Notes: generated from the sequence alone by a model not told the origin. Shown: positions 12,214-37,271, numbered from the stretch's first letter. The stretch: 54,033 nucleotides of DNA from a virus (IMGVR_UViG_3300031565_014860:1-54033); one strand, 5' to 3'. Numbers and translations are program-made.

Positions 12214-13071
12214 TTATTTTAATCCTACGAATATGTCACTTGTATCCCAAACTGCATCTCCTTTAGTAACAGTAGCAAATTTTATTATTTTTCCTTCTTT
12301 TGTTAAATCAAATTTAGATTTATCAATTTTTGCATTAAATTCTACTTTTCCTAATCCTATACTTTTGGTACATATTATTCTTTGATGCATTGCTTGATTC
12401 ATATTTGCTTTAACCATTGCCATATCTGTTGTTACCATAAAATCTTCATGTGCTATATAGAATTTATCCATTGGTATCGATTTTAATAAATCTATAGTTT
12501 CTGAAAACTTTCTAGCACGGCTTATCCAATATCTTTGCGTAACTCCACCATCTACTTCTAAATTTTTCTCTACTCTCATAACGTATTCACATATTTTTAA
12601 AAATCTAGAAATACCATCTAATACAATACATCCATAATCTTGTTCATTCTTATTTACAAACATAGCAATTGCTTTTATCTTAGATAACATTATATCATAA
12701 CTAGGGTCTCCATTATCATCAGCAACATATGCAGATAATACTTCTATTTTATCTGAGTTTTTATGGTATGAATTAAATACTGGGAAATCACCACCATCTA
12801 AATCAATAAACATAGTTTTTTTATCTATTTTTTCACAATAGTCCATTACAATTCCAGTTTTACCAGTACCATCTTGTCCTAACACAAGACAATTCATTGT
12901 GTTTTTTTGATTCTTTTTTCTTTCTTTAAATGCAGAAATATCATCTAATACTTGCTCATAAGTATATGCAGGATTAATATGTTCCTCAACTACTGGTAAT
13001 TTTTTATCTAATTTTTCTCCCCAATCAATTTCCTTTTTAGGTTCTTTTTCTATTTCTACCATAATTATCAC
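12214..13071 (-). CDS. RecA-fold P-loop ATPase (Sak4/AAA_24-like recombinase)
   Basis: Walker A GQDGTGKT, FIDLDGG, Walker B IVLDGIS, YIAHE; near the SSB-like gene. Confidence 0.7.
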   Translation of the reverse strand: MIIMVEIEKEPKKEIDWGEKLDKKLPVVEEHINPAYTYEQVLDDISAFKERKKNQKNTMNCLVLGQDGTGKTGIVMDYCEKIDKKTMFIDLDGGDFPVFNSYHKNSDKIEVLSAYVADDNGDPSYDIMLSKIKAIAMFVNKNEQDYGCIVLDGISRFLKICEYVMRVEKNLEVDGGVTQRYWISRARKFSETIDLLKSIPMDKFYIAHEDFMVTTDMAMVKANMNQAMHQRIICTKSIGLGKVEFNAKIDKSKFDLTKEGKIIKFATVTKGDAVWDTSDIFVGLK

Positions 13072-13275
13072 CTATTTTTTTATTACATATTTTATTTTTC
13101 TAAATCTTAATGCTTTTTTATGAATTATCTTATATCCCATATTAACTAAGTGTTTATATAGGGTAACATAAGCTATTTTTGTTTTTCCTGTTATTTCAGA
13201 AAGAGGAATCCCATCGGGATGGGACTCTAACATTTTTTGTAATTCCTCTTTTTTTTGTTCTGTTAATACTACCAT
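13072..13275 (-). CDS. Small HTH DNA-binding protein
   Basis: GIPLSEITGKTKIAYVTLYKHL helix-turn-helix pattern; likely start MVVLTEQ at 13275. Confidence 0.6.
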   Translation of the reverse strand: MVVLTEQKKEELQKMLESHPDGIPLSEITGKTKIAYVTLYKHLVNMGYKIIHKKALRFRKIKYVIKK

Positions 13276-13276
13276 T

Positions 13277-14356
13277 TTATTCCCATTGTTCTTTTTCTTC
13301 TTTAGACATGGATAAATTTCTATATACTTCTTTAGAGTATATTCCACTAACTGCTATTGTGCTTCCTCTATCATTAGTTCCTGGTTTACCAATCATCCAT
13401 ATTTCTGCTTTTTCTGGAAAATCAATTTTTATATGCTCAGATAAAAAACAAGCATATGGAGGTATTATATTTCCTTCTTCATCATCAAATTCCATAGTAT
13501 CATCATCAACTCTTAACATACTATTAGTAAGTCTTCCTGTTGGTAATAATATTTCATTAACGACTACTTTCATAATAGCAAAATCGTTAAAATTTGAATG
13601 TGATTCACACCATTCTTTATAACTTCCTAACACTAAATTATATTTTTTAAATGTTGTTTCAAATAGTGATAGTATTTCGTCTTCTTTTAATTCAGTTTCA
13701 TTTTTAAATTCTGTTGTTCCTGAATCATTAAATAGCAATAATGTTTCGGAAGATGTTTGTTTTTTAAATACATCAACTTTTGTCCATTTAAACATAGGAA
13801 TTGGTATTTTAGAATTTTCTTTTCTAAATGAAACAATAGCGGGTATAATTTTTCCACTTTCAAATTTAACGGCACCAAATGCTGTTTTTTGAAAGTCTTC
13901 TTTTGGAATAACTTTACCAATCCACTTTATTCCTGTTTTATCAATTAATGTTCCTTCTTCTGATTGTATATAATCTTGTTTAATTTTCCATCCTTGTAGT
14001 TTTTCAAACTTATCTTGAGGAATATAGTATAATAATTCTCCTTCTTTATTTACCATTCCTTCTTTTATTGCCGTTTCTGGATTTTTATCTACTATTGCTT
14101 GCGCTGTTGCTCTTCTTTTTTTAACCATATCTAAAGCATTTGTTGCTCCTATAAATACTATTTCAACTTCTTCTCCCTTTGAAGATAATATTTTTCTATA
14201 TGATGCTCTAAATCTAGAAAAAGCCATTGATTTTCTATCCTTTTCTGATATTGATGGGTCTAGTTTATTAAATTCATCATTTAGTTCATTTTCTAACTCT
14301 TCTGTTTTTTTATTTGTTTTGGCTACTATTTTTTCTATTGTTCCCATTACATCCAT
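13277..14356 (-). CDS. Probable RPA-like ssDNA-binding protein (OB folds)
   Basis: Helical N-terminus, beta-rich C-terminal OB-like region, acidic tail; lies in the replication operon. Start MDVMG at 14356. Confidence 0.55.
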   Translation of the reverse strand: MDVMGTIEKIVAKTNKKTEELENELNDEFNKLDPSISEKDRKSMAFSRFRASYRKILSSKGEEVEIVFIGATNALDMVKKRRATAQAIVDKNPETAIKEGMVNKEGELLYYIPQDKFEKLQGWKIKQDYIQSEEGTLIDKTGIKWIGKVIPKEDFQKTAFGAVKFESGKIIPAIVSFRKENSKIPIPMFKWTKVDVFKKQTSSETLLLFNDSGTTEFKNETELKEDEILSLFETTFKKYNLVLGSYKEWCESHSNFNDFAIMKVVVNEILLPTGRLTNSMLRVDDDTMEFDDEEGNIIPPYACFLSEHIKIDFPEKAEIWMIGKPGTNDRGSTIAVSGIYSKEVYRNLSMSKEEKEQWE

Positions 14357-14357
14357 T

Positions 14358-14513
14358 TTATTCAACCTCTTTATCACTTTTTTTCTCTTTAATATTAAAA
14401 ACATTAATATCTTGATAAATATCAAATTTATCTTTTAATGCTTCTTCTATTTCATTAAAAAATCGTGTTTTATTTCCTGAACATTTAAGTTTATTTATTT
14501 GTAAATAATCCAT
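14358..14513 (-). CDS. 51-aa hypothetical protein heading the replication operon (not in ORF track)
   Basis: GGAGGAG RBS, then MDYLQINKLKCSGNKTRFFNEIEEALKDKFDIYQDINVFNIKEKKSDKEVE. Confidence 0.6.
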   Translation of the reverse strand: MDYLQINKLKCSGNKTRFFNEIEEALKDKFDIYQDINVFNIKEKKSDKEVE

Positions 14514-14552
14514 AGCTACTCCTCCTTTTTATATATAATTTACTTTTTAGGT

Positions 14553-14570
14553 TTTATATAGGTATCGGTT
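14553..14570 (-). promoter_or_regulatory. Archaeal BRE+TATA promoter of the replication operon
   Basis: Minus strand AACCGATACC-TATATAAA, nearly identical to AACCGATAAC-TATATAAA at 28351 and 28699. Confidence 0.75.
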
Positions 14571-14575
14571 ATAAT

Positions 14576-16129
14576 TTAATGTATATATTGTAAGATATGC
14601 TTTTTAATATCTACATTTAAAATCTCTTCGCTTAAACATCTTTTTCCACACATAGCATCATATATATGCGATTCTATTCCTGCTGATATTATATTAAATA
14701 CTTTTAATGGTCTATCTCTAAGTAATCTATATGCTCTATATACTCGTTGTCTTATTTTTGCAGGATTCCATGGAATATCAAAGTTTATAATTGTATCAAC
14801 AAATGGCATATCTACTCCATACGCCATTGTATCTGTAGTAACCAAATATTTATAATTTTTTCTAAAATCTTCTTTTATATCTGTCTTGTCTCTTTTTGAT
14901 TCTCCGGTTGCTATTATACTATTTGGTAATTTTTCTAATATTATATGAGCCATTTTAGCATATTTGGTAAATATAACTATCTTTTCATCATTTAGCTCAT
15001 TTAATATAAGCAATAGTTCATCTAACTTTGGTGACGATTCTGTTATTAAATCTTTATTTATATCTTCTATTGACTTTGCGATTGATGTTTTTATTAATAA
15101 TGTACTATCACAAACCATATGTAAAAAAGTAAAATCTTGTATTTGTCGTTTTCCTTTTCTCAAATCATCAATAATAATACGTTCTAATTTTATTTGTTCT
15201 TTACTTAATTCTACAAATCGTTCATATATTATTAATTCAGGAGGAACTTTTACATCACTCATTTTTCTTCTTATTGTACATTCCATAAATCGTTCTTGGA
15301 ATTTATCTAAATTTTTGTATCCTACAATTCTATGGTCTTCAAAAACACAATATTTCCAAAACTCAGATTTAGTCATCCATTCTGGATTAATAATATTGCA
15401 TATATTGAAAGCATCTTCTAACTTATTTTCTATTGGTGTTCCTGTTAATCCATATAAATGACTAGGAGCAAATTGTTTAGATAGCTTAGTTCTTTTTGCT
15501 TTTCTATTTTTCAGATAAGACATTTCGTCATATATCAATATATTATTTTTTATTATTGGTAGTAATAACATAAAATCTGCTAGTATTTGTTCATAATTAA
15601 TAATTAATATCTTAGGAGGATTAATATATATCTTTTTTCTCATATAAAGAGGACCTTCAACTATTGTACACTCTTCTCCAAAAAAATCAGATACTGATAT
15701 TTTCCACTGTTTCTTAATTGATTTAGGACAGCAAATAATTATATGTTTTATATGTTCATTTTTATGCAAATATATAGATATCGCAAGCGATTGTATTGTT
15801 TTTCCTAATCCACAATCATCTGCAATAAGTAATCGTTCAGTAATCACACCTCTTGCAACACAATCTACTTGAAAATCATATAAAAATGGAAATGTTTTCA
15901 ATATATCTTCTTTAACATCTTTAATATCATTATCAATATCTGTTATTTCAAATCCCATATCTTTTACTTTTTTAATATTATTTTGAGTTAATGGAATTTC
16001 CCATCTTAAATATACAGGATTCCAAATATGTCCAGATATCTGTTTTATATTATAAGTAGTTATTGCAGATGTTAATGTTCTATCATATTCAATACATAAC
16101 TTTCCGTTGTTAATATATGCAGTTTTCAT
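14576..16129 (-). CDS. SNF2/SF2 helicase (HARP-like)
   Basis: DDCGLGKT, INYE, IYDEMS, LTGTPIEN, KIVIFT, GVDM, DIPWNP, QRVYRAYR. Confidence 0.9.
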   Translation of the reverse strand: MKTAYINNGKLCIEYDRTLTSAITTYNIKQISGHIWNPVYLRWEIPLTQNNIKKVKDMGFEITDIDNDIKDVKEDILKTFPFLYDFQVDCVARGVITERLLIADDCGLGKTIQSLAISIYLHKNEHIKHIIICCPKSIKKQWKISVSDFFGEECTIVEGPLYMRKKIYINPPKILIINYEQILADFMLLLPIIKNNILIYDEMSYLKNRKAKRTKLSKQFAPSHLYGLTGTPIENKLEDAFNICNIINPEWMTKSEFWKYCVFEDHRIVGYKNLDKFQERFMECTIRRKMSDVKVPPELIIYERFVELSKEQIKLERIIIDDLRKGKRQIQDFTFLHMVCDSTLLIKTSIAKSIEDINKDLITESSPKLDELLLILNELNDEKIVIFTKYAKMAHIILEKLPNSIIATGESKRDKTDIKEDFRKNYKYLVTTDTMAYGVDMPFVDTIINFDIPWNPAKIRQRVYRAYRLLRDRPLKVFNIISAGIESHIYDAMCGKRCLSEEILNVDIKKHILQYIH

Positions 16130-16230
16130 TATTTTTCCTATTCATTTAATCTTCTATTTTGATAATAGTGTACGATATCAAATCCAAATATTTCTATAAA
16201 TGGTTTCATAATATTCCTCCTTGGGCTAAA

Positions 16231-16662
16231 TTAATTAAAGTCTGCACATTCTCCAATTTTTTCTATTGCAAATCTATACTTATCTTTCAAACTCCCTTCT
16301 TTCAAATCCGACATATTATGTTCTAAATCTGCAATTTTAACTTGAAATATAGACCTCATATTTGTAGAACATATTATTTGATTTATATAATCAAAATATG
16401 TAGTTCCTTTTTTTCTTGTTAATGATTGAACACAATTAGCAGTGTGTCGATTAACTCCAAGAGATATTAATTTCTCTTTTGTAATATTAGTATCTTCAAT
16501 AACATCATGCAACCATGCAATAGGTTTTAGTTCATCAGATACTTTTTCTGCTACTGCTTCGGGGTGTGTTATATATAGTTTTCCATCTTTTCGTTTTTGT
16601 CCTTCATGGGCTTCAGTTGCTATTGATTTAGCTAATTCTATTTGTTCTTTAATAGTTCTCAT
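16231..16662 (-). CDS. Stand-alone HD-domain hydrolase (RelA/SpoT hydrolase, Mesh1-like)
   Basis: AHEGQKRKDGKLYITHPEAVA, AWLHDVIEDT, VKIADLEHN. Confidence 0.85.
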   Translation of the reverse strand: MRTIKEQIELAKSIATEAHEGQKRKDGKLYITHPEAVAEKVSDELKPIAWLHDVIEDTNITKEKLISLGVNRHTANCVQSLTRKKGTTYFDYINQIICSTNMRSIFQVKIADLEHNMSDLKEGSLKDKYRFAIEKIGECADFN

Positions 16663-16666
16663 TCAA

Positions 16667-16855
16667 TCACTCAAATGTTTCATCTTGACATTTTTGACAT
16701 AATCCTGAAATCTTATATTCCTTTAATGATAAATCATTTTTAAATTCATCAATTATTATCTTTTTTTTACAAAAAGGACATTTTTTATTTTTTACTAATT
16801 CAAACATTTCAGGAAATGTTTTTCTTATTATCTCATCATTCATAATATCATTCAC
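16667..16855 (-). CDS. Small zinc-ribbon protein
   Basis: CPFC...EFKNDLSLKEYKISGLCQKCQD; GGAGTGA RBS. Confidence 0.7.
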   Translation of the reverse strand: MNDIMNDEIIRKTFPEMFELVKNKKCPFCKKKIIIDEFKNDLSLKEYKISGLCQKCQDETFE

Positions 16856-16919
16856 TCCTTAGGCGAACTCTTTAATTCTTCAACACATTTATCAAGTATA
16901 CTCATAACAATCACTCTAT

Positions 16920-17294
16920 TTATTTTAGTAAATTTGGATTATTAAAATAATCTCCAATTATTTCTAATTCAGGATAATTTATTGTGGATAAATGTATTAT
17001 TTCTTGTCTGTCTTTAGTTACTAAATGAACTCCACAATTTGAAAATTCAATTACGCCAATTTTATTTCCATATTTGCAAATATATTTTTCATAGATTTCT
17101 TTTCCAGTTTTGTCTTTCTTTTCTGAGTATTGTAGATATTCAAATCGTGATGAATAGTGTGGTGGGTATCCAATAAACTTCCATGGTTCGTGTTTTTCAA
17201 ATTTTTCATTAAGTAATCTAAGGGATAATTCAATACCCTCATATATTAATTCTTTTTCTTTTTTATCCCAAACTATAAATTTTATTTCTCTCAT
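16920..17294 (-). CDS. YopX-family protein
   Basis: MREIKF.VWD, LQYSEKKDKTGKEIYE, LEIIGD..NNPNLL. Confidence 0.8.
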   Translation of the reverse strand: MREIKFIVWDKKEKELIYEGIELSLRLLNEKFEKHEPWKFIGYPPHYSSRFEYLQYSEKKDKTGKEIYEKYICKYGNKIGVIEFSNCGVHLVTKDRQEIIHLSTINYPELEIIGDYFNNPNLLK

Positions 17295-17795
17295 AATTAT
17301 TCCTCCATAGTTCGTTTAATCATTAGTTTAACATAATCCTAACATAAATTTAGATAGTTCTGTTTTCAATAAATCTATGTCTTTCTCTTTAGATTCAATT
17401 TCATCAACTATTTCATTCATACGTTTTAATTTTGATAAATCAAAATGATTTTTTGAATTTTGTGAATTAATTCGTTTTCTCATTATTTTAACAAAAGTAT
17501 ATTCAATCGTCATTTCAATCACTCCTCAGAACTAACTCCACATCCATTTCCATCAAAAGAAATTCTTATATTTTCTTTTGAATAATTGTTTTCTAAATAT
17601 CCAAGATATTTTGCAACTTCTATACACGTTCTGCGAATTAATTCTTGTTGTGAGACTTCTTCAATTACTTTAATTTCTGGAATAATTAATAATTTTCCAG
17701 TATCAAAAACTTCTTCACAAACAAAGTCTTTTATGACTACTCCATTTTCTGCGTGTATTATTTCTAAATGTTTTTCCATCAAATCACTCCTTAAG

Positions 17796-17834
17796 CTTTA
17801 TAACACTCCATTTTGAAAAATATCTCAACCTTAC
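17796..17834. repeat. 39-bp exact direct repeat, copy 1
   Basis: CTTTATAACACTCCATTTTGAAAAATATCTCAACCTTAC, identical at 18565-18603. Confidence 0.9.
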
Positions 17835-18564
17835 TTATAATTATCTTTTTCACTCATATTATTTCCTCCGAAGATTTGATGTATTTATTCCTCTAATTCC
17901 TGCAAAGAATAACATCAAAAATATTGATTGAACTATTGTTATTTTTTCAAATCCGAAATATTGTGCTATTGACAAATTAAATCCGAAATATACAAACATA
18001 AGTTTAATAATATATACTGCAAACTCTAGCCCTAAGTCAATAATATTCTCATATAATTTCTTATAATCTACATCACTCATATTTATTCACTCCATTGTTT
18101 TTTTAATATAATCTAATGATTCAGATAATGATTTAAATTCTAGGTTTGTAATATGTTTACCATTAAAATACTCTAAATTAACTCCCCAATTACAAAAAAT
18201 TAATTTCATAGATTGAACATTTTTAATTTTGTCTTCACTCTTTTCCATTTAATCACCCATACCTTTATACTATTACTGAGACCATACTATTGCATTACCA
18301 CAATCTTTACATTTAAATCCATTATCTCCTGAACAATAACCAGTATATCCGCTATAATCTGTTCCGAAATCACCAAAAAATTCAACATTAGTGCTTCCAC
18401 ATTTCTTACATACTAACAAGAATCTTTTATCAAATGATTCATCTTTTAGTTGGCTTATTGTTATTATATTATCATCATTAGTTTTAACAAACTCTCTAAA
18501 TTCTTCTAATTTCATTTTTTTCATAACATCACCATTTTTACACATTTCAATCACTCGCCTTGTA

Positions 18565-18603
18565 CTTTATAACACTCCATTTTGAAAAATATCTCAACCT
18601 TAC
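18565..18603. repeat. 39-bp exact direct repeat, copy 2
   Basis: Identical to 17796-17834. Confidence 0.9.
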
Positions 18604-19020
18604 ATTTATTACAATAATATCCTATTTCTTTTCCATATTCAGTTACAATACCATAGATTCAATACATTCCTTACGATGTTTTGGACAGAAGAATTTTGTT
18701 TTTCCTTTACCATTTCTAAATGCAGTCCAATTAATTGTATGAAAATCAATAAGATTAAAATTTGTAGTTGCATCACAACATTCACATTTTTTCATAATAT
18801 CAATTCTCCTTAATCAATTCAGTTAATTTAAATTCGTCACCCACATTAAATACGGGTTTCTTGTTCATTTCATACCAAAACAAATTCATAGGATGAGTAG
18901 CATTAATATGTAATTCTATTTTATATGATGTCTTTTTTGAATCCATATCGTATTGTTCTGAAATCGCAATTACCGTTATTTTAATTGGTAATTTATCATT
19001 AAGTTCTTTAGTCATGTCAA

Positions 19021-19122
19021 TCACTCCATTTCAACTACTCCATCACATTCTCCTAAGTCTTCAAGAACACAATGCACGCAATAACCATATGGACACTTAG
19101 TTCCATCTTTTGTTAGTCTCAT
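19021..19122 (-). CDS. 33-aa Cys-rich microprotein
   Basis: GGAGG RBS; MRLTKDGTKCPYGYCVHCVLEDLGECDGVVEME. Confidence 0.5.
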   Translation of the reverse strand: MRLTKDGTKCPYGYCVHCVLEDLGECDGVVEME

Positions 19123-19143
19123 TTCAATTCCTCCATAGTTCGT

Positions 19144-19305
19144 CTAAATATTAATTTTAAATTCTACAAACTTTTTGCATTTATTGCAATATTGATAATA
19201 TTTTGCTCCAACTATTCTCTCAATAGGTAATACTGAATGAGTGCTTTCATTATTACATTTAGTACAATAACTTTTTACTATTGTAATTGATGGTCTTACA
19301 TACAT
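19144..19305 (-). CDS. 53-aa zinc-ribbon microprotein
   Basis: MYVRPSITIVKSYCTKCNNESTHSVLPIERIVGAKYYQYCNKCKKFVEFKINI; flanked by oppositely oriented TTAGRCGAA motifs. Confidence 0.65.
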   Translation of the reverse strand: MYVRPSITIVKSYCTKCNNESTHSVLPIERIVGAKYYQYCNKCKKFVEFKINI

Positions 19306-19365
19306 AGTAATTTTAATCACTCCTTAGGCGAAATTTCAGTAATACATCCATTATTAATTCCTTTA

Positions 19366-19419
19366 CTAAATCCACTCATTTGTATCTATTCGTTTTCCTC
19401 TAAATTTTATTTCTCGCAT
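19366..19419 (-). pseudogene. Truncated YopX N-terminus
   Basis: MREIKFRGKRIDTNEWI* is the classic YopX start and stops after 17 codons. Confidence 0.7.
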
Positions 19420-19421
19420 AA

Positions 19422-19598
19422 TCATTCCTTCTTTTTTTTAACACCTTCACATGATGGACAAACTAATTTACTTCCGTGATTAATTGATTGTATAATTATC
19501 TTGGTTTTGCATTTCTTACAGATTAAATTATCTTTATCATCTGTACCAAATTGTCTTCTATCTCTATGACTTACACAAGTATCTGTTATTCTAACCAT
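19422..19598 (-). CDS. 58-aa zinc-ribbon microprotein
   Basis: AGGTGA RBS; ...NLICKKCKTKIIIQSINHGSKLVCPSC...; similar to the neighbouring ORF. Confidence 0.65.
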   Translation of the reverse strand: MVRITDTCVSHRDRRQFGTDDKDNLICKKCKTKIIIQSINHGSKLVCPSCEGVKKKKE

Positions 19599-19608
19599 AA
19601 TATCACCT

Positions 19609-19776
19609 TTATCTCTTACATTTAGGACAAATATATATCAATTTATCCTTAATCTTACTTCCTCTACGAAAGATAGACCTAATAATTGCTGCTGCTCCAC
19701 ATTTTTTACACTCTAGATTACCATCTCTTCCTATAGCAAATTTTAATGCATCTCTTCTTGTTACTGATGATGTCAT
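19609..19776 (-). CDS. 55-aa zinc-ribbon microprotein
   Basis: GGAGG RBS; ...NLECKKCGAAAIIRSIFRRGSK...ICPKC. Confidence 0.65.
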   Translation of the reverse strand: MTSSVTRRDALKFAIGRDGNLECKKCGAAAIIRSIFRRGSKIKDKLIYICPKCKR

Positions 19777-19789
19777 TTTAATTCCTCCT

Positions 19790-20515
19790 TTAATATCTTA
19801 TTTCAAATCCATAACACGAACTTACAGATTTAATATTATTTCCATCGTAATATGTAGGAATATTTTTCATTATTTTATCTTTTTGAGGTTCAATGTAATA
19901 TATACCTTCAGTCGTGTTTACTGCAATAAGAGCATGTCCATTAATAGTATATTCTAGTTCTGTAAAACACGATACAATTCCATTCTTTTCAAATACATCT
20001 ATTACTTTATTTGTAAATTCTGTGCAGTCAAAGGTATCAACATCATATGATAATGTATCGGTTTTATCATTTCTTAATATTGAGGATATTTCTTGTGTTG
20101 TTGGTATATGATATTCTAATTTTTTCCTAGCTTCTAATTGGTCATATTGAATATCCATATATGATATCTCTTGTCGCAATTCATCAATAGTTCTATTTGA
20201 TTCTGATAAGTAATATGTCAAAATTTGATTTTCATTAGTCAAGTTATAATTATGATTCATACTTAACTTATATTCATAAGTAAGTCTATTATTATCTTGT
20301 AATAAATCATAACTATATATTGTACTATTAATTAATAATAATGATATAGTACAATAAACCAATATTCCTAATATTATAACCTTATATGATGTAACAGGAA
20401 TATTTTCTACCGGAATATACATATGATATCCAGTAGTAGTTGGTAATTCTATTTGGTTTTCTTTAATAAATCCTTTAGTTATCATAGTATCTATCCATAG
20501 TATCTGCCCATTCAT
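19790..20515 (-). CDS. Membrane-anchored coiled-coil protein with C-terminal papain/transglutaminase-like Cys domain
   Basis: Hydrophobic helix VIILGILVYCTISLLLI, coiled coil, then FDCTEF...GHALIAV...YYIEPQ (Cys-His-Glu). Confidence 0.65.
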   Translation of the reverse strand: MNGQILWIDTMITKGFIKENQIELPTTTGYHMYIPVENIPVTSYKVIILGILVYCTISLLLINSTIYSYDLLQDNNRLTYEYKLSMNHNYNLTNENQILTYYLSESNRTIDELRQEISYMDIQYDQLEARKKLEYHIPTTQEISSILRNDKTDTLSYDVDTFDCTEFTNKVIDVFEKNGIVSCFTELEYTINGHALIAVNTTEGIYYIEPQKDKIMKNIPTYYDGNNIKSVSSCYGFEIRY

Positions 20516-21522
20516 CTGGTATTTTTTCTATATTCCATTTTTTTGTACTAAATCTAGATATTGTTATTATATAGGTATAGTTAATTCTACAATAAACTAT
20601 TCTAATATATAATATCATATCTATTATTCTTTTTAATCGTTCAATCATATTAGTAGTTCTTATCTTATCACCTTTTTTATATTTGTATATTACTCTAATA
20701 CTATACTATTACATTATTCTCCTTGTAGTTAAAACAGTCATCACATAAATTATAATCAAGTTCATCTAACTTAGTATGACATCTATCGCCTACATCAAAT
20801 ATACGACAACATTTACTACATCTATTATATTCATTACATTTATATGAACTTATAGCAATCCCTAACATCCATTCTTTATTTTTCATTTGCTTACCTACTT
20901 TTCGTGCTTTACGAACAGCTGCTTTTATTCATAAAAGTTCTACTCTTCTAATTTTATCTTCAAATGGTTCATTAAATATCTCATAGCAAGATAGACACTG
21001 AACATATCCATTTCCGAATATTGCTCTTCGTTCTACCCTCCTCTTATGTATTTGTGAACATGTTGGACATATTATAAAGTTAATGTTTATCTTCTCTTTT
21101 ACCTTTTTTCTTTTTAGTATCACTAAAGCTAAAATCTCTAGGTACAGGATATATACAAGAGCATTGTGCTTCAAATGGAGTACCATCTTCCTTTAATAAT
21201 CGTTTTCGTCTTGCACATTTCTTTCCTAGTAAATCTAAACAGGTATGTTGATTAAATGTACATCCTCTAGTTGGTCTTTCTAAATGTACACACACATCTT
21301 CTTCTATTGTAAAAGAATCGTGTACAATTCCTTCTTCTATTGTTCTAACCGGTACTATATTTCTAGACATATTATCTTCCTCCGTCTTCGTCTATAAACA
21401 TATATCTATCTTTACGTTTTAATCGTTTAATAATAAACGCTTGAATTTTATGAAATATACTATTAGATTTCATATGAATTTACCTGAATTTAAATAATAA
21501 CTATTATATGAGTTTTAAGACT

Positions 21523-21572
21523 TTATAGAATGTTATTCGTTTAATATATATGTTAAGCGTAACATTCTATAA
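21523..21572. repeat. 50-bp imperfect palindrome, copy 2 of the dispersed family
   Basis: Arms TTATAGAATGTTA/TAACATTCTATAA around TTCGTTTAATATATATGTTAAGCG. The reverse strand aligns with 10511-10560, including TCTTAAAACTCAT. Confidence 0.8.
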
Positions 21573-22409
21573 TGTATTTATTATCTTATTCATTTATTTT
21601 TCTAAAGGATTCCCTATCATTAAGTGATGATATATGCATTTTTACAACTTTCGATTTAGAATTATCTTTTTGTTTATTTTTAATCTCTTTTTCAAATGCT
21701 TCAATATCTTCTTTACTAGGTTGACCAAGAGTTGTACACAATTCTAAAGTTCTATCTTTAGACATAGCCCATGTGCTAATAGTACCATCTTTCTCAAGTT
21801 CAACAGGTGCAAATTCTAAATCATCTGCAATGTACCTTTTTAATAATTCGGCCATTTGGCTTAATGTATCTTCATTTGAGTGTGTACTTTCAGATTTGTA
21901 TGTTCCTTCAAAACCATCATTTTGAAATTCTTTAGCTGCATAATATGCTACCGTTTGATTATTTTTGCATATGTCTGCAAGAGTATGTAGTTTATCACAT
22001 TCGTTAAAAGAAGTATAATCTATAATAGCCTCTAGTCCAGACATTTTTTTAACATCATCGTGTAATTCAAACTTTAATGTTCCTTTAATATCTCTCATTT
22101 GTCTTACTATTTCGTTTGTTAATGCTATTTGCTCATTATCCTGTTTACTATTCATCTAACCACCCCGAATTTTTCTAATAAAGAATCATAATTCTTCATT
22201 ATTAATACACATTTTTCTTTTGTTAATCCTTTTGATAATTCACATACTGTTGTAGTATCCCACATATTTGTTTTTCCATACTTGCGTACTCTTTCGTAAT
22301 CTTCAATATCTTCTTTTGTAATATCAGATATTTCCATTCTTCTCTCTGTTTGTTCCATATCTTTTATTTCTTCTTGAGTTGTCATTCACTTCACCCTTTT
22401 ATAATTATA

Positions 22410-22521
22410 AGGCGCAATCCATATATCGTGCCATAATGTTCAACTATCATCTTCATTATACGAATCTAGTGTGTAGTAAGTTCGCAGTTAATCGGATTTC
22501 TCCTAGTGATTGATTGCGCCT
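22410..22521 (-). ncRNA. Candidate structured intergenic RNA
   Basis: Perfect 10-bp closing stem AGGCGCAATC/GATTGCGCCT; internal GGA-GAAA-TCC and ATAATG/CATTAT helices; GC-richer than flanks. Confidence 0.45.
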
Positions 22522-22538
22522 GTTGATTTTAGCAACTA

Positions 22539-23090
22539 TTAATTGTTATATTTTTTACATATCCAATACACTATTGGTTCTAATTTCATTTTTCTATCTT
22601 TATTTAATATTGAACATATACATCTTCCCTTATGTCCTCTAGGCCTGGTGCATCTATAATTAATATTTTCACTTACAAATACTTTATTACATTGTCTTAT
22701 ATACACACCGTGGTCTATATATGCTACTGAAATGGGTTCTAATATTAATAACATCTCTTTGCGTTCTTCTCTTCTTATTACCATATTGCTTTTTGACATA
22801 AGTTTATAATTGAACACCGTATTTGGATTATAGTATACTAATTTGTCTATTGGTGCATTTTCCCAAATTGCTAATGTTTTCGAAATGGCAAATATTATTT
22901 TACTTTTACCCAATACATTTATACATCTTCCTTTGTGTCCTTTTCTACGATTACATCTATATTGTTTAAACTTTTTATCACATTGAATAAAAGATTTACT
23001 TAAACAATTAACTATTTCTCGTTTTTCTTGTTTTGTTAAAGGAATGGGTTTATTATAATTCTTTGCTTCTTTTAACTCAATAGTAGTCAT
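22539..23090 (-). CDS. Protein with duplicated C-C-H-C zinc-finger-like motif
   Basis: CDKKFKQYRCNRRKGHKGRCI and CNKVF...YRCTRPRGHKGRCI. Confidence 0.7.
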   Translation of the reverse strand: MTTIELKEAKNYNKPIPLTKQEKREIVNCLSKSFIQCDKKFKQYRCNRRKGHKGRCINVLGKSKIIFAISKTLAIWENAPIDKLVYYNPNTVFNYKLMSKSNMVIRREERKEMLLILEPISVAYIDHGVYIRQCNKVFVSENINYRCTRPRGHKGRCICSILNKDRKMKLEPIVYWICKKYNN

Positions 23091-25399
23091 TTATTAGCCT
23101 TTGTTAATAATCTATATTTTGTACTAAACACTATTTTATTCATTCCTATGGTATATACAGCATAATTTACTTCTATGAATTCTAACCATACCCATATTCT
23201 ATTGATATTTCTTGGAATCCAACAAAATATAGGTATCCAGTGTCCTCTATTTTTATTATAATACTCTTCTTTTATTTTAATCAAGCTTTTAATTTGCATT
23301 ATTAATCACCTATATATTTGTGGATATCCTATATATAATCCCCTTATTTTACTATTTACCAATGCTTACAATTTTGACATTTTTCTCTCATTCAATCACC
23401 AACTTATCATCTTTTGTTATTAATCTTATTTCTTTCAACGAATTGAATACTTTTGTTTTTTCTTTTTTTAATGTATCTATTTTTTCCTGCAATTTAATTA
23501 ATTTCTTAATTCGTATAGTATTGTATAATATATGTTTATACACTTGATACAAATACATATTTTCACAAAATTCATCATTTGTGGTAAATAATGCAATTTT
23601 ATCATTACTACCTGTTGTTTTAGCAATATATTTTCTAATTTCATCTCCACGATTACAATATACCGTTCCAATAGTAACATGTATCATATCGTCTATTTTC
23701 TTTTTTATTTCTGTAATATTATCTTCACAATAAACAGTATTCTTATATTCCATTGTAAATTTAGATTTGGATTCTATATATCCTATTCGTACTCCCTTAT
23801 ATCTCATTATATCAATTGACATTTTACTCACCTACTTAATATATGTTTTTTTAAGGTCTTCGTTTACACGTTCTATCGCTGTTGTTATTTCTTTCAGTTT
23901 AAATGAATTATCAAATGCTAACTTTATTTCCCAACTATATACTCCTTTTGTGCTTCTTTTTAATACAATATGACAAGGATTTTGTATAGTATCTGATTCT
24001 TTAGTAAATACACTCATTTTTTCACCTCTCTATTTTTAACAATATTATCGATAAGTTGCTGCATTTTTGGAATTGGACATTTTGCATTGTTTACATATTC
24101 TTCAATTTTGTCATTGAATGGACCATTAAGAATCTCTACTATCTTTTCTGAAAATGCGTCCATACATTTTTCTCGAATATCTTTATCTATTATTGCTAAT
24201 ACTTTATTATAATCATATGTAAGATTAGCTTCTTGTGCATATTTTTCTATCATAGAATATGACTCATAATAATATAGGTCTTTGTATAATTCCCTAGCTT
24301 CTTCTCTTAGCTTTGCTCTTAATATAGCTTTAAGACGCCCTTCTACTCTTCTATTCATTAATGATTTGAAATTTTCGATTGAAAAACTATTCATCCAAAG
24401 GCTAATATATTCATAATTTTCACAATGGAAAGAGCACGATGTTTCTCCTTTATATGGATAATCTACTTTCATTTTGAACGTAGCACAATTGTTTGTAAAA
24501 TCATATGTATCTAATACACATTTAACATTAATATTTCCATATGTATATAATACATGTTCTTGGCCCCATCCTTGTCTATTGAGGGCTAAATTTACTATTT
24601 CTATCCAATCTATGTCTGTTTCTACTATTTTAAGTTCGTTCATAAGTATTCCTCCTTTACAACTTTATATTTAAATATCTTTGTTCTTATATGTATATAA
24701 GGAAACTTTATTTTAACTAATGATTTATCCTTATATCCTTTGAAATATAATCGTAATGGTATCCAACCATTTTCTGTTTGTCTCATAATAAGACTTAATC
24801 TTACAATTACTGCTGTCTTTGGGTCATAATCTATTTCTTTAAAAAAGTCTTGTACTATTGGAAGAGTTAATATTGTGTCAAAATTATTAGATATGCTATA
24901 TACTAAATGTCTTCCACCTACTGTATTATAATACTTGGTATAATCAGCATTAATTTTAAATAATACAATTTCTTCATTTGTTATTACATTATTATATACT
25001 TCTATGAATCCACAATCTTTGCAAAATTCTTTACATTCACATTTTTTTATCATAATTATTCCTCCATAGTTCGTCTAAGCTTTAATAACGTAAGGGAATT
25101 TCCACATTACTTATTTGTTTGGTCTATCATTCATTCACCAATATTTAAATCATCCAATAATTCTTGAACGTTTATTACTGTGTTTATACATCCCATTTCT
25201 GGATTTTCCAAATCATACTTATGGTCTGTAATCCACTTTTTTAAAGCTTCAACATCTATTACTATAAGTTCATCATCAACAGATAATCCTTTTCTGAATA
25301 CTGTTCCTAATTCGTTATCTCTGCTGAATATGTATCCTAATTTTCGCATTGCATCTTCCATATTAATCATTTCTCCTATTTTACTTATAATAATAATAT

Positions 25400-25491
25400 T
25401 GGTGTGGGAAAGAATCGAACTTCCAAACCCAATCAATTAATGGTCATCGGTTGCAATTCTAATACTTAAACATTTTCAACATATACCCACC
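25400..25491 (-). tRNA. Degenerate class II (long variable arm) tRNA-like sequence
   Basis: T arm GGAAG-TTCGATT-CTTTC, 3' CCACACCA, 5' GGTGGGT, D-loop-like TGTTTAAG, loop containing TTGCAA, long variable arm; several stem mismatches. Confidence 0.5.
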
Positions 25492-25979
25492 GTTGATTTA
25501 TCCTCACATTTAATTGTTGTCTCCCCATCGGAGCCACACCAACCATAATATTTAACATCCATTTTACTCCTGGAAATAATATAAGGACATTCCTTTACGG
25601 TCCTCTTTAATTCCCTTTGAAATTCTAATAATTCGTTCTTAAATATAATATAGAATTTAACTTCCCTAGCTATCTCTAATAAAGTATAATATGACCCTTC
25701 ATTGGACATTAGCAATATTTCAATTCTCTTAGAAATCGACAATTCCTTAATTTCCCCTTTTGGTCCGAGTTTTTCCTCTCTAAAGGAGATTCGCATAATA
25801 TGATAATCATCGGTGTGAAATAGCTTAAATCGCTTCATCGCTTTTTCCTTTAGATTCAATCGCTGCATTAGAATCTTATCTACCGGTCTAAGGTTCCTAC
25901 AGGTCCTTTTAGGGGGCGTTTTAACATAGGTTCTGCTAGGAGTTTTGCTTAGTTTTCCAAATTCGATAGCCGAAAGCAT
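25476..25979 (-). CDS. Winged-HTH-like protein, paralog 1
   Basis: N-terminal EFGKLSKTPSR shared with 26560-26865; C-terminal YTLLEIAREV...ISR...KYY wHTH pattern; own TATA promoter at about 26002-26019. Confidence 0.55.
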   Translation of the reverse strand: MLSAIEFGKLSKTPSRTYVKTPPKRTCRNLRPVDKILMQRLNLKEKAMKRFKLFHTDDYHIMRISFREEKLGPKGEIKELSISKRIEILLMSNEGSYYTLLEIAREVKFYIIFKNELLEFQRELKRTVKECPYIISRSKMDVKYYGWCGSDGETTIKCEDKSTVGIC

Positions 25980-26524
25980 AATTATTATTTAAATTTTAAA
26001 CTTTATATAGATATGTTTTGTTATTGCGTAATGACAACTAAATTTTAAACCGCATACCCGCTCCGTCTTTTAAAATATTAAAAGACATAATCGCTATACC
26101 GAGCTGTATTTTAATGTTTTAGGTTGTAATGTATATATTTGTATTTCTATCTATGTGTCATCGTTCTTATTCTATTCTTTTGTATAATGTATATATATAT
26201 ATATTAAAATATATATATAAAATATTAAAAAACACCGGAGATTAGCGATTTTGAAATTTAAAAAAATGGCGCCGCAGTATATCGATTTATTTAAAGTCAA
26301 ATCTTTCAATAGCGCCGAATCGCACACCGGAGGCTCATTTACTGTTTTTTGGATATTTCGGAAATACCAACCTTTTCTCATTGTAATCTTCATATAAAAA
26401 CTGCGGCGATATTGAGAATACCATCGCAATTCTTATTTTCTATAAACTCCCTTTTAGATAAAGATATTTGATTTTGACACATAATATATCAAATGATTAA
26501 AGTGAATTATTAAAGAATTAGTGA

Positions 26525-26538
26525 GGGACCGAAGTCCC
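26525..26538 (-). terminator. cUUCGg tetraloop hairpin after the wHTH gene
   Basis: Minus strand GGGAC-TTCG-GTCCC, about 20 nt past the stop of 26560-26865. Confidence 0.6.
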
Positions 26539-26559
26539 CCTTTGTACAATTGTTCTTAC

Positions 26560-26865
26560 TTATGCAGACTTTGCAAGATTCTTAAAGACAGATGTTCGTT
26601 TTCCTTCTTTATCCACAAGATATCCTCTGTCGAGCTTGTCGTCCCTGAAAAGGTTATTCAATGCTGTTTGAACGCTTGCAATTTTTACTTCTGTTTTTAA
26701 TACCTCAGAAACTGGTTTTACTAGTTCTGCTGCTGAGTATCCACCTTTTGTGGTCATTGCTGCTAAGACTGTTCCTCTTAGACTTTTTCCCTTTAGCCCA
26801 AACCCTCGTGATGGTGTTTTATCTAACTTCTCAAATTCCTCTTCATTAATTGGCATATTAGCCAC
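26560..26865 (-). CDS. Winged-HTH DNA-binding protein, paralog 2
   Basis: MPINEEEFEKLDKTPSR...GYSAAEL...ASVQTALNNLFRDDKLDR; GGAGGTG RBS; promoter AACCGCAAC-ATATATAAA at 26902-26919. Confidence 0.7.
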   Translation of the reverse strand: MANMPINEEEFEKLDKTPSRGFGLKGKSLRGTVLAAMTTKGGYSAAELVKPVSEVLKTEVKIASVQTALNNLFRDDKLDRGYLVDKEGKRTSVFKNLAKSA

Positions 26866-27131
26866 CTCCTAAATTAAGATAATAATAATTGAATTTTAAT
26901 CTTTATATATGTTGCGGTTATGAAATATAACGTATATAGTTGATTATATATATTTCATTCCATACATTGATTTTATTTTCTTAATTCGGGATAAGTCTTC
27001 CCAATTTTGATTTTCAAATGCTATGTTTTCCATATTTTTAATTTGGTCAACTGTTAATGGTTGTCCATCGATTGCTTCACTCATTTCTATTCACCTTATT
27101 TTATTTTATTCCATAATATAATATGGAAAAC

Positions 27132-27173
27132 GCTCATTCGAGGACTCACACCTCGAAGTCTGTTAGTATGAGC
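27132..27173 (-). ncRNA. tRNA top-half mimic (t-element-like), copy 1
   Basis: GCTCAT-11 nt-TCGAGG-TGTGAGT-CCTCGA-ATGAGC; starts at the stop of ORF 27173-27397. Confidence 0.65.
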
Positions 27174-27397
27174 TAGTTCTGATATGTTGGACACACTATT
27201 ACTACTTCTTTTGTTTCATCGTCATAGTATATTCCTTTGATTGATTCTTCTGGATTCTCTTCAATAATTTCACATATTTCATAATCTTCATGACAGTCGT
27301 TGTTTATATTGTTCTCAAAGTCATATACATTTCTAGTACATATAGATGTCTCTGGGTCATAGTTCTTTAATATATCTATTAGTTCTTTTATTTTCAC
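27173..27397 (-). CDS. Small acidic protein (MxxxELIxxLxxYDP family), paralog A
   Basis: GGAGG RBS with GTG start; MKIKELIDILKNYDPET. Confidence 0.7.
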   Translation of the reverse strand: MKIKELIDILKNYDPETSICTRNVYDFENNINNDCHEDYEICEIIEENPEESIKGIYYDDETKEVVIVCPTYQN

Positions 27398-27571
27398 TTA
27401 ATCGCCTCCATCCATACAATCAAAGATTTCAACTACATCTCTAATTGTTAATTTTCTTATATCATATTCATCGTAATCTGCTTCTACATCTTTTATCAAT
27501 GCATCTCTGAGTTTTAATGGTATATTGCATTTCTTCATTGCTTTATCTACTATAATTTCAACTCTTTTCAT
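27398..27571 (-). CDS. 57-aa hypothetical protein (not in ORF track)
   Basis: MKRVEIIVDKAMKKCNIPLKLRDALIKDVEADYDEYDIRKLTIRDVVEIFDCMDGGD; abuts the next gene. Confidence 0.6.
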   Translation of the reverse strand: MKRVEIIVDKAMKKCNIPLKLRDALIKDVEADYDEYDIRKLTIRDVVEIFDCMDGGD

Positions 27572-27612
27572 TTTTTCACATCCTATTTTATTTTATTCTT
27601 TAATATAATAAT

Positions 27613-27653
27613 GCGCATTCGGAGATTTGCACTCCGATATTCCTATTATGCGC
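27613..27653 (-). ncRNA. tRNA top-half mimic (t-element-like), copy 2
   Basis: GCGCAT-10 nt-TCGGAG-TGCAAAT-CTCCGA-ATGCGC; 2 nt after the stop of ORF 27656-27829; stems covary with copy 1. Confidence 0.65.
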
Positions 27654-27655
27654 TC

Positions 27656-27829
27656 TTATACTTTTATTGTTATTAAGACATCGTCTTTTTCTTTTGAAAT
27701 GCTTTCACTTTCAATATCGTGTAGTTCAAAGTCGTTATCGTATTCCGATTTATCAACTTCTTCTTTTATTACTACATTTGCATTCGGGTCGTATTGTTGT
27801 AATGTTTCTATTAAGTCTCTTACATTCAT
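27656..27829 (-). CDS. Small acidic protein, paralog B (not in ORF track)
   Basis: MNVRDLIETLQQYDPNANVVIKEEVDKSEYDNDFELHDIESESISKEKDDVLITIKV, similar to 27173-27397. Confidence 0.65.
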   Translation of the reverse strand: MNVRDLIETLQQYDPNANVVIKEEVDKSEYDNDFELHDIESESISKEKDDVLITIKV

Positions 27830-27925
27830 TTTCCCAACTCCTCACTAATAAATTTATAATTCATATTATCTCCTCCTTAATAAAATAAACATTCATAATA
27901 AAAATATAATATAAGCTAATCTTCT

Positions 27926-28147
27926 TTATACTTTTTCTCTTTTTGTATCTATAAAAAAGAGTTCTAAGCATTCAACAAGAAACTCGCTCATCAAATCTCC
28001 GCTAATGTTATGTTTTTTTAATATTTTATCTTCTTCAATTACAACTAGTTCTTTTAATCTTTGTTCTAGTTGAATTTGAAATGGTCTTTGTTTAATTAAA
28101 ACTCTAGTTCTATTAAACATTATTTTTCTCATTTGAACTTCATTCAT
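27926..28147 (-). CDS. Hypothetical protein, first gene of the leftward arm
   Basis: GAGGCGA RBS and conserved leader. Confidence 0.6.
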   Translation of the reverse strand: MNEVQMRKIMFNRTRVLIKQRPFQIQLEQRLKELVVIEEDKILKKHNISGDLMSEFLVECLELFFIDTKREKV

Positions 28148-28350
28148 AATATCGCCTCGTTTTATTTTATTCCTTAATATAATATATACTTCTATGTGTT
28201 CCTATGTACATTATGTTATGTATATCTTCGGTCATATATATAGATTTTGCGTTCATACGATTATTTAAATTTTAGTATTTATATAGTTATTTATTATCCG
28301 ATATCATATATCTTTCATTATATATTACGGAATATTATACAATGAAACAG

Positions 28351-28394
28351 AACCGATAACTATATAAACGTTAGAATTTAAATAATACGTATTA
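28351..28394 (+). promoter_or_regulatory. BRE+TATA promoter with palindrome TAATACGTATTA near the predicted start site
   Basis: AACCGATAAC-TATATAAA at 28351-28368; palindrome at 28383-28394; same layout at 29369-29402. Confidence 0.75.
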
Positions 28395-28419
28395 ATTAAA
28401 AATATAAAACGGTGATAAT

Positions 28420-28686
28420 ATGGAAAACGAATTAAAAATAGGATTATATAATAAGGATAAAAACGGGAAACAACGGATAAGCGAAACATTATCTATTCCG
28501 TATGAACAACGAGTAAATATGGAACAAGCAATTAATAATATATTTCCTGATGATTTAGGAAACGATATGTTTAGTGAATCGGTTAATCGTATTTTATTAT
28601 CGGGAGTAATAGAGGAAATCATATCCATTGAGGAATGGGAAATCATAATTAAAGCAATCGGTGAAGTTGTATTACATAAGAGATAA
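28420..28686 (+). CDS. Hypothetical early protein
   Basis: GGTGA RBS and upstream promoter. Confidence 0.65.
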   Translation: MENELKIGLYNKDKNGKQRISETLSIPYEQRVNMEQAINNIFPDDLGNDMFSESVNRILLSGVIEEIISIEEWEIIIKAIGEVVLHKR

Positions 28687-28698
28687 AGAAAGTATTAC

Positions 28699-28716
28699 AA
28701 CCGATAACTATATAAA
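28699..28716 (+). promoter_or_regulatory. BRE+TATA promoter
   Basis: AACCGATAACTATATAAA, identical to 28351-28368. Confidence 0.75.
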
Positions 28717-28762
28717 GATACGTGAATATATATTAATTAGAAAATAAAACGAGGCGATATAA

Positions 28763-29026
28763 ATGTCAATGAGCGAAGAAGAATTTAATAAGTTAGAAAA
28801 GAAAAGCACCGGATTAGGAGCTTTAGTATTAGACGCACTAAAAGATAAACAAGCATATAACGAGTCCGAGATATATAATAAGCTACATATGAAAATCGAA
28901 GACGGCGGATTATCGAATATCTTTAAGTATTTACAATATCGACAACATAAAATAACAATGCGCCGAAAAGATACAATACGATACTTTAAACTCGATAATA
29001 CAACCGATACAAAGAAAACTATATAA
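28763..29026 (+). CDS. Winged-HTH-like protein, paralog 3
   Basis: MSEEEFNKLEKKS...LVLDAL...AYNESEI...LSNIFKYL...KITMRR...RYF; similar to 26560-26865. Confidence 0.65.
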   Translation: MSMSEEEFNKLEKKSTGLGALVLDALKDKQAYNESEIYNKLHMKIEDGGLSNIFKYLQYRQHKITMRRKDTIRYFKLDNTTDTKKTI

Positions 29027-29054
29027 TAGATTATATATAATCTATTATCTTTTA

Positions 29055-29150
29055 TTTTGTTTTACGTACTAATATAATCTTTATTCTCTATTTTATTTTA
29101 CGTACTAATATAATCTTTATTCTCTATTTTATTTTACTCACTAATATAAT
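29055..29150. repeat. 36-bp tandem repeat (~2.7 copies)
   Basis: Unit TTTTATTTTACGTACTAATATAATCTTTATTCTCTA. Confidence 0.85.
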
Positions 29151-37261: not shown

Positions 37262-37271
37262 GGTGATATAA

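Follow-up and report, generated by a model that had tools for sequence, protein, structure and literature searches.

We analyzed a 54,033-nt virus record from IMG/VR (IMGVR_UViG_3300031565_014860:1-54033), here called the window in its whole length, in which a short sequence recurs at three boundaries between small genes. Each copy belongs to a 29-nt unit that runs, on the minus strand, from a stop codon through a Shine–Dalgarno (SD) element to one base past the start codon of the next gene. An initial annotation had described these copies as TTAGRCGAA junction motifs fused to ribosome binding sites (RBSs), and had proposed that they form a cassette-shuffling system. Our analysis makes it somewhat probable (roughly 0.55) that the unit is a translation junction carried to three gene boundaries by general recombination, and is not part of a site-specific cassette system. 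The units lie in a hypervariable block of small open reading frames (ORFs), no site-specific recombinase or shared hairpin accompanies them, and relatives in the same soils differ from the window at junctions of this block.

A stop-to-start unit at three gene boundaries

The 17-mer ACGAACTATGGAGGAAT occurs exactly three times in the window, at 17299–17315, 19127–19143 and 25058–25074, always on the minus strand. Its chance expectation is 0.12, and none of 100 shuffles reached three copies. No further copy was found in the window with up to three mismatches allowed. The copies, and the sequences first quoted for them, were all confirmed at their coordinates. Each is part of a unit with the layout TTAG ACGAACTAT GGAGG AAT NNNN ATG A, in which ACGAACTAT is a 9-nt spacer. 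In all three units an in-frame stop codon precedes the ATG by 21 nt and GGAGG precedes it by 7 nt. Hence GGAGG stands 5–10 nt before the start of a real gene, the spacing by which we recognize an SD, in three of three copies. Identity among the copies is limited to the interval from 2 nt before the stop to 1 nt after the ATG. The three units are as follows.

17291–17319, minus strand: unit A, TTAA-ACGAACTAT-GGAGG-AAT-AATT-ATG-A, before a YopX-family gene; exact 17-mer, stop codon TAA in frame
19119–19147, minus strand: unit B, TTAG-ACGAACTAT-GGAGG-AAT-TGAA-ATG-A; its TAG is the stop codon of ORF 19144–19305, and its ATG starts a 33-aa ORF
25050–25078, minus strand: unit C, the fullest version, TTAG-ACGAACTAT-GGAGG-AAT-AATT-ATG-A, before a 137-aa ORFan; exact 17-mer

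Units A and C match at 28 of 29 positions, and the sole difference, TTAA for TTAG, still gives a stop codon. The exact identity between them, first put at 24 nt, is real but extends to 25 nt (17291–17315 and 25050–25074). Units B and C have 21 nt in common (19127–19147 and 25058–25078), together with ATGA. An independent Logan contig (record 2 of soil-metagenome run X1, 16866–17825) carries unit A intact, with 0 differences, and 98% of the 31-mers sampled from 16000–25400 were found in runs X1 and X2. The initial account of motifs joined to RBSs at gene boundaries, amid many gene remnants, is borne out. Just upstream of unit A (17304–17327, minus strand), a 12-nt string, TAAACTAATGAT, is followed by TAAACGAACTAT. 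These two strings match at 9 of 12 positions and both start with a stop codon; they may represent a slipped partial duplication of the 5′ part of the unit.

The 3′ half of the unit is the commonest RBS type of the small-ORF block. The string GGAGGAAT is found 10 times in the window, versus 1.17 expected, and 6 of the 10 copies have an ATG after 3–5 nt, all on the minus strand within 16.2–25.1 kb. In this respect the unit resembles an ordinary, translationally coupled SD junction between cistrons of a tightly packed operon, with a stop codon and then GGAGG 7 nt before the ATG; GGAGGAAT-N3–5-ATG serves six genes of the region in this way. Yet an ordinary junction needs no extra 13 nt identical at three unrelated genes. 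Because GGAGGAAT is common in front of the genes of the block, it is this 13-nt 5′ part, TTAGACGAACTAT, that sets the three copies apart. A stop-SD-start string of another kind, TAAGGTGATATAAATGTCA, is also repeated, in front of two neighboring structural genes (37259–37277 and 37713–37731), with a 15-nt partial copy at 28756–28770, before gene 28763. Junction reuse is therefore not limited to the accessory block. RBS flavour also varies by module in a hand-curated set of 87 starts, which is approximate, some starts being uncertain: 9 of 9 GAGTGA-type SDs and 8 of 13 GGAGG elements lie within the 16.2–26.5 kb block, and 11 of 21 GGTGA SDs in the structural module.

Genes behind the three copies

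A different gene follows each unit.

16920–17294, minus strand: YopX-family gene after unit A (PF09643, E 2.5e-12)
19021–19122, minus strand: 33-aa Cys-rich ORF (ORF33) after unit B, read from the sequence
24640–25053, minus strand: 137-aa ORFan after unit C, with no homologue of 75–240 aa in a set of 5.8 billion proteins

The initial annotation called the ORFs behind the motifs unrelated, and indeed the three proteins show no mutual similarity at E ≤ 1. All three are called as genes in public collections. The YopX protein has a single relative among the 5.8 billion sequences, P0024, which is 79% identical over 55% of the query, in the C-terminal half; MREIKF is common to both, and the N-terminal half is unrelated. 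No relative of the YopX protein was found in IMG/VR. Judging from this alignment, the YopX gene is mosaic, with an intragenic joint near residue 57. The exact ORF33 protein is present on 7 contigs, versus 2–3 for its neighbors, a count that in part repeats the Logan data described below. P0007, a 439-aa protein grouped with ORF33 by clustering, was rejected; the two have no resemblance when both sequences are read, and the grouping looks like a clustering artefact. P0018, which is related to ORF 18643–18795, has an N-terminus that matches the first six codons of the 137-aa ORFan (MIKKCEC), with a 15-nt patch, AAAAAATGTGAATGT.

The unit lies in a hyperplastic region

The block that holds the repeats is bordered by conserved genes on both sides.

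16130–26559, minus strand: hyperplastic region, ∼30 small ORFs between the SNF2 helicase gene and the conserved gene 26560–26865; no homologues in G001 or G003

We compared the ORFs of the window with those of two syntenic relatives, G001 and G003 (35–50% amino acid identity, same gene order), with a homologue cut-off of E ≤ 1e-4. Nearly all replication and structural genes have a homologue in G001/G003, and both flanks of the block are conserved. Within 16130–26559, no ORF has a homologue in either genome at this cut-off. Between the helicase and the counterpart of gene 26560–26865, G001 has 1,187 nt and G003 has 10,221 nt. On these comparisons of gene content, 16130–26559 is a variable block of the virus lineage, hyperplastic in the T4 sense, and the placement of the repeats in the variable part of the lineage holds. 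Gene remnants and tandem paralogues also occur in the block. Two small ORFs of the Zn-ribbon type, side by side at 19422–19598 and 19609–19776 (minus strand), are 40% identical over 50 aa (E 3.5e-8, small database), which indicates a tandem duplication inside the block.

The initial annotation suggested looking for the motif across related virus genomes; it was not seen in the three distant relatives G001–G003 or in the other collections searched. In G001 and G003, the best hit was one match with three mismatches, the level of a reversed-pattern control. Nor does the block of G003, equally large, contain a repeated junction of at least 15 nt. From these genomes, the 29-nt unit is not a conserved system of the lineage. 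The 17-mer has no match in other IMG/VR contigs, and a 14-nt core gave 81 single matches, with no contig carrying two. Two other sequences of the region, TTCGCCTAAGGAGTGA (described below) and a 38-nt piece of ORF33, are likewise missing from IMG/VR contigs, and megablast of the region against phage records gave no match. Single matches to the 17-mer were found in 21 GTDB contigs and 29 metagenome contigs; these are unrelated, mostly GC-richer (GC 0.27–0.63), and without blastn similarity to the window. Because the collections searched may leave out records very near the window, these data show that the motif is not widespread, not that close kin lack it.

Gene remnants and a second repeat

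The 16-mer TTCGCCTAAGGAGTGA, which had been taken for the inverted form of the motif, is a separate coding repeat and not an inverted ACGAACTATGGAGGAAT. It has two copies, at 16852–16867 and 19317–19332 (0 of 100 shuffles reach two), and each forms the last 16 nt (..SPKE stop) of a micro-ORF. Both micro-ORFs start with ATGAGT, and both lie directly downstream of YopX sequence: the full gene 16920–17294 in one case, the 17-codon stub 19366–19419 in the other. Because each micro-ORF follows a YopX gene or stub, the TTCGCCTAAGGAGTGA copies point to duplication of a ‘YopX + micro-ORF’ module and partial deletion of the duplicate. Features of this part of the block are listed here.

16852–16905, minus strand: micro-ORF 1 (MSILDKCVEELKSSPKE), 17 aa, ending in SPKE; the TTCGCCTAAGGAGTGA at its 3′ end also gives the SD of the next gene
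19317–19379, minus strand: micro-ORF 2 (MSGFSKGINNGCITEISPKE), sharing its last 16 nt with micro-ORF 1; overlaps the YopX stub
19366–19419, minus strand: YopX N-terminal stub (MREIKFRGKRIDTNEWI), 17 codons and then a stop; a 15-nt patch is identical to the YopX start
19144–19305, minus strand: 53-aa Zn-ribbon ORF between TTCGCCTAAGGAGTGA copy 2 and unit B; paralogue of the remnant 18557–18661 (E 7.5e-4, small database)
17796–17834, minus strand: copy 1 of a 39-nt exact repeat (repeat family D11), a gene-end remnant and the approach to the next RBS
18565–18603, minus strand: copy 2 of the 39-nt repeat, the 3′ end of a start-less frame that resembles ORF 19144–19305 by sequence comparison

The stubs reported beside the motifs are therefore present, both the YopX stub and the 17-aa ORF ending in SPKE. 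So is the very short ORF near 25110, at 25107–25130, although it has seven codons rather than eight. A variant, TTAGCCCAAGGAGGAAT, lies at 16213–16229. The ‘inverted pair’ said to bracket ORF 19144–19305 amounts to a 9-nt inverted repeat with 8 of 9 positions matching, and this is not above chance: the window contains 871 such pairs (one mismatch, at most 250 nt apart). The string TTARRCGAA occurs 12 times in the window, versus 1.5 expected. Five of the 12 are the repeat copies themselves, and the other seven lie in heterogeneous, mostly coding contexts.

Breakpoints in relatives from the same soils

Five soil-metagenome runs contain parts of the region, two of them possibly the source of the record, and four were compared with the window as Logan contigs, with a resolution set by contig ends and joints. 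In run X3, a 3,757-nt contig (depth 42) is identical to the window over 19135–19012. Next, where the window has 473 nt (18539–19011), the contig has 1,731 nt of different sequence, and it matches again over 18538–18264 with 18 differences. One edge of this replacement, 19012, is one base after the ATG of ORF 18800–19015; the other, 18538, is 7 nt into ORF 18273–18545. The variant protein P0016, encoded on a 35-kb contig, starts at the second ATG, and no such protein was found in IMG/VR. Runs X1 and X3 agree on where the shared ORF33 block stops: at 19135, a position within unit B that separates ACGAACTA from TGGAGGAAT. The block 19012–19135 is one 124-nt Logan contig, and stands in a different context in record 10 of X3.

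Contigs of X1 end at 16866/16884, the 5′ edge of TTCGCCTAAGGAGTGA copy 1. In X3, a joint (side 40, called at 80% likeness) ties 16855 to 19158, consistent with a relative that has no ORF 19144–19305 and in which the end of the micro-ORF abuts the approach to unit B. Contigs of X1 and X3 also join a stub-like YopX start (like 19398–19419) to the YopX interior at 17121. The initial annotation proposed testing whether gene-content breakpoints fall on the motif. Two of the five mappable breakpoints, 19135/19136 and 16855–16884, lie at or next to its motifs; two others are at other RBS-start junctions and one is inside YopX. Moreover, of the two at motifs, only 19135/19136 is in the 29-nt unit, at contig-level resolution. 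As the evidence stands, breakpoints cluster at translation starts and are not tied to one motif.

Two further signals were discarded. A dip in X1 depth at 19.4–26.7 kb was considered as strain-specific content and dropped; ∼10% of contigs are left out and some records filtered, and such a hole proves nothing. Joints with 20–25-nt sides (e.g. 12923 to 27205 and 13247 to 17387) were left aside, since they look to stem from other organisms or from repeats.

Site-specific recombinases, hairpins and promoters

The initial annotation likened the motifs to integrons; on that view, a tyrosine recombinase whose gene lies elsewhere would cut at TTAGRCGAA as its core site. The block is indeed an array of small genes in one orientation with a short sequence recurring at cassette-like boundaries, and each copy (ATTAAAC, TTTAGAC and CTTAGAC) matches GTTRRRY at 6 of 7 positions. 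But a 6-of-7 match is to a degenerate 7-mer, and the recombinase sought in the rest of the record was not found: in six frames of the 54-kb record, PF00589 (tyrosine recombinase) gave 0 matches at E ≤ 1, with 14 of 14 control genomes positive, and PF00239 (serine recombinase) gave 0, with 13 of 14 controls positive. An attC site is an imperfect inverted repeat of 57–141 nt that forms a hairpin from one strand. No attC-like imperfect palindrome is present at the copies, and 81-nt folds around the three revealed no shared hairpin or fold (z-scores −2.26, +0.35 and +1.11). Whereas attC sites follow the cassette ORF, the unit contains an RBS and abuts a start codon. In addition, the proposed inverse core is the unrelated coding repeat described above, inverted 9-mers are commonplace, and, apart from single chance matches, the motif is private to this record in the collections searched. 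None of the three integron features tested (IntI, attC hairpin, GTTRRRY core) is present. The integron-like reading is largely refuted, and we regard it as highly improbable. The broader proposal of a dedicated cassette-shuffling system is also not sustained, with breakpoints that are not specific to the motif and no site-specific recombinase in the record.

Transcription signals were also sought. Sigma-70-like promoter sites are at chance level (110 versus 114.7 ± 11.3), by a consensus that may not be that of the host. The sole promoter match on a copy, at 25077–25049 (9/12), has its -10 box over the start codon. Three terminator-like sites were counted in the region versus 2.4 expected, none of them at a copy.

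Origin of the repeated junction

In the explanation that we favor, spread by general recombination, the elements of the unit (stop codon TAR, spacer ACGAACTAT, GGAGG, 7 nt and ATG) would end translation of the upstream gene and start that of the next small gene. The accessory block would be rebuilt by homologous recombination at short patches, or by illegitimate recombination, and the virus encodes two proteins that could plausibly assist.

12214–13071, minus strand: Sak4-like ssDNA-annealing ATPase, candidate general recombinase (PF13479, E 1.9e-10; phrog_124, E 1.1e-10)
2778–3503, minus strand: PD-(D/E)XK / Cas4-like exonuclease (PF12705, E 8.3e-13; phrog_69, E 1.8e-9)

The unit would stand at three gene boundaries because the block was rebuilt in this way. 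Selection would retain only products with a working stop-RBS-start junction, and if only these survive, the copies would be footprints of gene replacement and insertion; they could also act as homology patches for further exchange. Both the spread of the unit by recombination and the involvement of the Sak4-like protein and the nuclease are our inference. Conserved gene-boundary sequences are found at the mosaic joints of lambdoid and dairy phages. The window resembles these in having short patches of boundary identity within unrelated flanks, in a virus with an annealing-type recombinase. It differs in that the patch is repeated within one genome and found in no other virus searched. Phage single-strand annealing proteins (SSAPs) reportedly recombine short, diverged sequences and generate mosaicism (PMC5499656, PMC8093625, PMC5928155, PMC2896510).

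Several observations weigh against this explanation. A role as SD leaves the perfect keeping of ACGAACTAT and the flanking TTAG unexplained, with the flanks of the copies unrelated. A shared homology patch would be expected in other viruses and was found in none, in searches from which near-window records were possibly excluded. Only two of five breakpoints touch the motifs, at a resolution of contig ends and one joint called at 80% likeness. Of 27 joints, the 15 listed include none that links two unit copies (skips of 1,828, 5,931 or 7,759 nt); since contigs drop rare variants, this lack is weak evidence. Because the 13 non-SD nucleotides are perfectly kept without explanation, room is left for an active mobile element or a regulatory site.

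Promoter-early stem-loops (PeSLs) are mobile regulatory cassettes of T4-type phages (Arbiol et al. 2010, PMC2839356; Comeau et al. 2014, PMC4122927). PeSLs are, like the unit here, short repeated intergenic sequences in hyperplastic regions, upstream of ORFans, with the stop codon of the preceding gene at one end and the SD and start codon of the following gene at the other. PeSLs coincide with boundaries of insertion, deletion or replacement between relatives; of the five breakpoints mapped here, one is in the unit, at contig-level resolution. PeSLs are exchanged through homologous, not site-specific, recombination, which in our case is a proposal. However, PeSLs have a sigma-70-like promoter and a terminator stem-loop and number ∼50 per genome, whereas the present unit has 29 nt, three copies, no promoter and no stem-loop, with no recombinant form seen in contigs. 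Since the promoter and stem-loop that define PeSLs are missing, the unit is PeSL-like at most, not a PeSL. Even so, it might be an active element, with the direct copies as preferred crossovers for homologous recombination by the virus; deletions, mini-circles and block re-insertions would result (A–B 1.8 kb, B–C 5.9 kb), each block bringing an RBS for the gene behind it. Direct repeats of 17–25 exact nt in an ORFan-rich hyperplastic region, a span like that given for PeSLs (PMC2839356), contigs that end inside unit B, an ORF33 block in two contexts and an encoded Sak4-like protein (SSAPs being reported to recombine short, diverged sequences; PMC5499656, PMC8093625) are all in keeping with this. 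Yet the copies are only three, the copy-to-copy joint is missing among those listed (weakly telling, as said), the other breakpoints lie at other junctions or inside YopX, and the G003 block, equal in size, lacks a repeated junction of the length sought. We consider such an element unlikely.

Another idea is that TTAGACGAACTAT, beside the SD, is a post-transcriptional operator, bound or cut by a virus factor so that the three genes are co-regulated. In T4, the RegA repressor and the RegB nuclease act at the RBSs of early genes, and T4-like replication genes are present in this virus, namely those for PolB and a gp44-like clamp loader. Perfect conservation of the non-SD 5′ half, between flanks that are unrelated on either side, would also fit an operator. 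But we found no regulator, with neither the 122-aa ORF 9305–9673 nor the other ORFs scanned giving such a Pfam or PHROG match; the copies have no shared RNA structure, G001–G003 lack the motif, and the three genes are without evident common function. An operator is thus a doubtful explanation. Coincidence or artefact, meaning a chance likeness of strong RBS regions or the mixing of strains in metagenome assembly, is very unlikely. It is true that RBS regions of this AT-rich genome often have 12–15 nt in register in common, that the 17-mer precedes an ATG by chance in unrelated bacteria (e.g. L092, L096, L103 and L105), and that the sample contains several related strains. A random-window control for such shared patches was discarded as flawed, because its windows can overlap one another. 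However, shuffling never produced three copies, the identity spans 21–25 nt and includes a non-RBS 9-mer, and both the independent contig with unit A and the 31-mers found in two runs argue against an assembly error.

Layout of the record

The record is classed as ‘provirus’, with a CheckV completeness of 60 and a G+C content of 28.2%. The minus strand of 1–16.1 kb is a replication and DNA-modification module that encodes PolB, a TGT/DpdA-like protein, QueC, GTP cyclohydrolase I, a radical-SAM protein and PTPS. The gp44-like clamp loader belongs to the same module, its nearest Atlas clusters being viral, and the SNF2 helicase forms the right edge, bordering the small-ORF block at 16.1 kb. Packaging and structural genes occupy the plus strand of 30–54 kb, syntenic with two distant relatives, and the small minus-strand ORFs that hold the repeats lie between the two modules. 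Searches of the record returned no tRNA, no Rfam match and no rRNA, and neither these results nor the viral clusters nearest the clamp loader bear out the word ‘archaeal’ in the initial annotation. A full 7-deazaguanine pathway of the queuosine/archaeosine type is encoded at 5693–9317 (minus strand; TGT/DpdA-like, QueC, GTP cyclohydrolase I, radical-SAM QueE-like and PTPS/QueD), a gene set that suggests modification of viral DNA by the virus. At the left end (1–1591, minus strand) are a truncated NAD-dependent epimerase gene and a class I methyltransferase gene, which may be auxiliary genes of the virus or, in view of the ‘provirus’ label, host flank. The contig from which the record comes measures 62,279 nt.

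Between the divergent gene blocks, 27081–29152 is a repeat-dense control region. It contains a 43-nt promoter/RBS-like unit four times (27081, 27568, 28142 and 29109) and 36-nt units, three in tandem (29045–29152), with a 27-nt tandem at 29286. A 71-nt unit occurs at 28346, 29354 and 32883 (the last copy 32883–32953), and the 20-nt string AAAATAAAACGAGGCGATAT precedes genes on opposite strands. These repeats are probably early promoters, operators or an origin. Within the small-gene block, the intergenic gap 21474–21590 (minus strand) holds a 13-bp hairpin, TATAGAATGTTA..TAACATTCTATA (z = −2.58; 4 of 200 shuffles fold as well), which may be a terminator or operator dividing the block into transcription units. 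A non-coding stretch of 150 nt at 22386–22535 (minus strand), unusually G+C-rich for this genome, has a 10-bp closing stem, GGCGCAAUC.../...GAUUGCGCC; its fold is no better than those of shuffles (z = −0.61), and it has no Rfam match.

Implications for virus gene gain and loss

Most unknown genes of tailed viruses sit in hyperplastic regions, and how genes are gained and lost there without losing expression is only partly understood. A tentative and rather improbable thought is that the unit corresponds to a T4 PeSL reduced to a minimum and without a promoter: a portable translation junction serving as a landing pad for the Sak4-like recombinase, by which gene blocks, whether foreign or duplicated, would be captured in frame with signals for expression. 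If true, a soil virus lineage with no relation to T4 would have arrived at an integron-like outcome by way of homologous recombination. Likewise, if recombination does use short stop-RBS-start units of this sort as patches, the reach of PeSL-type shuffling would include a minimal, translation-only element and an unrelated group of soil viruses. On the present evidence, the window offers a tidy case of ordinary phage mosaicism, with reused junctions and accumulating gene remnants.

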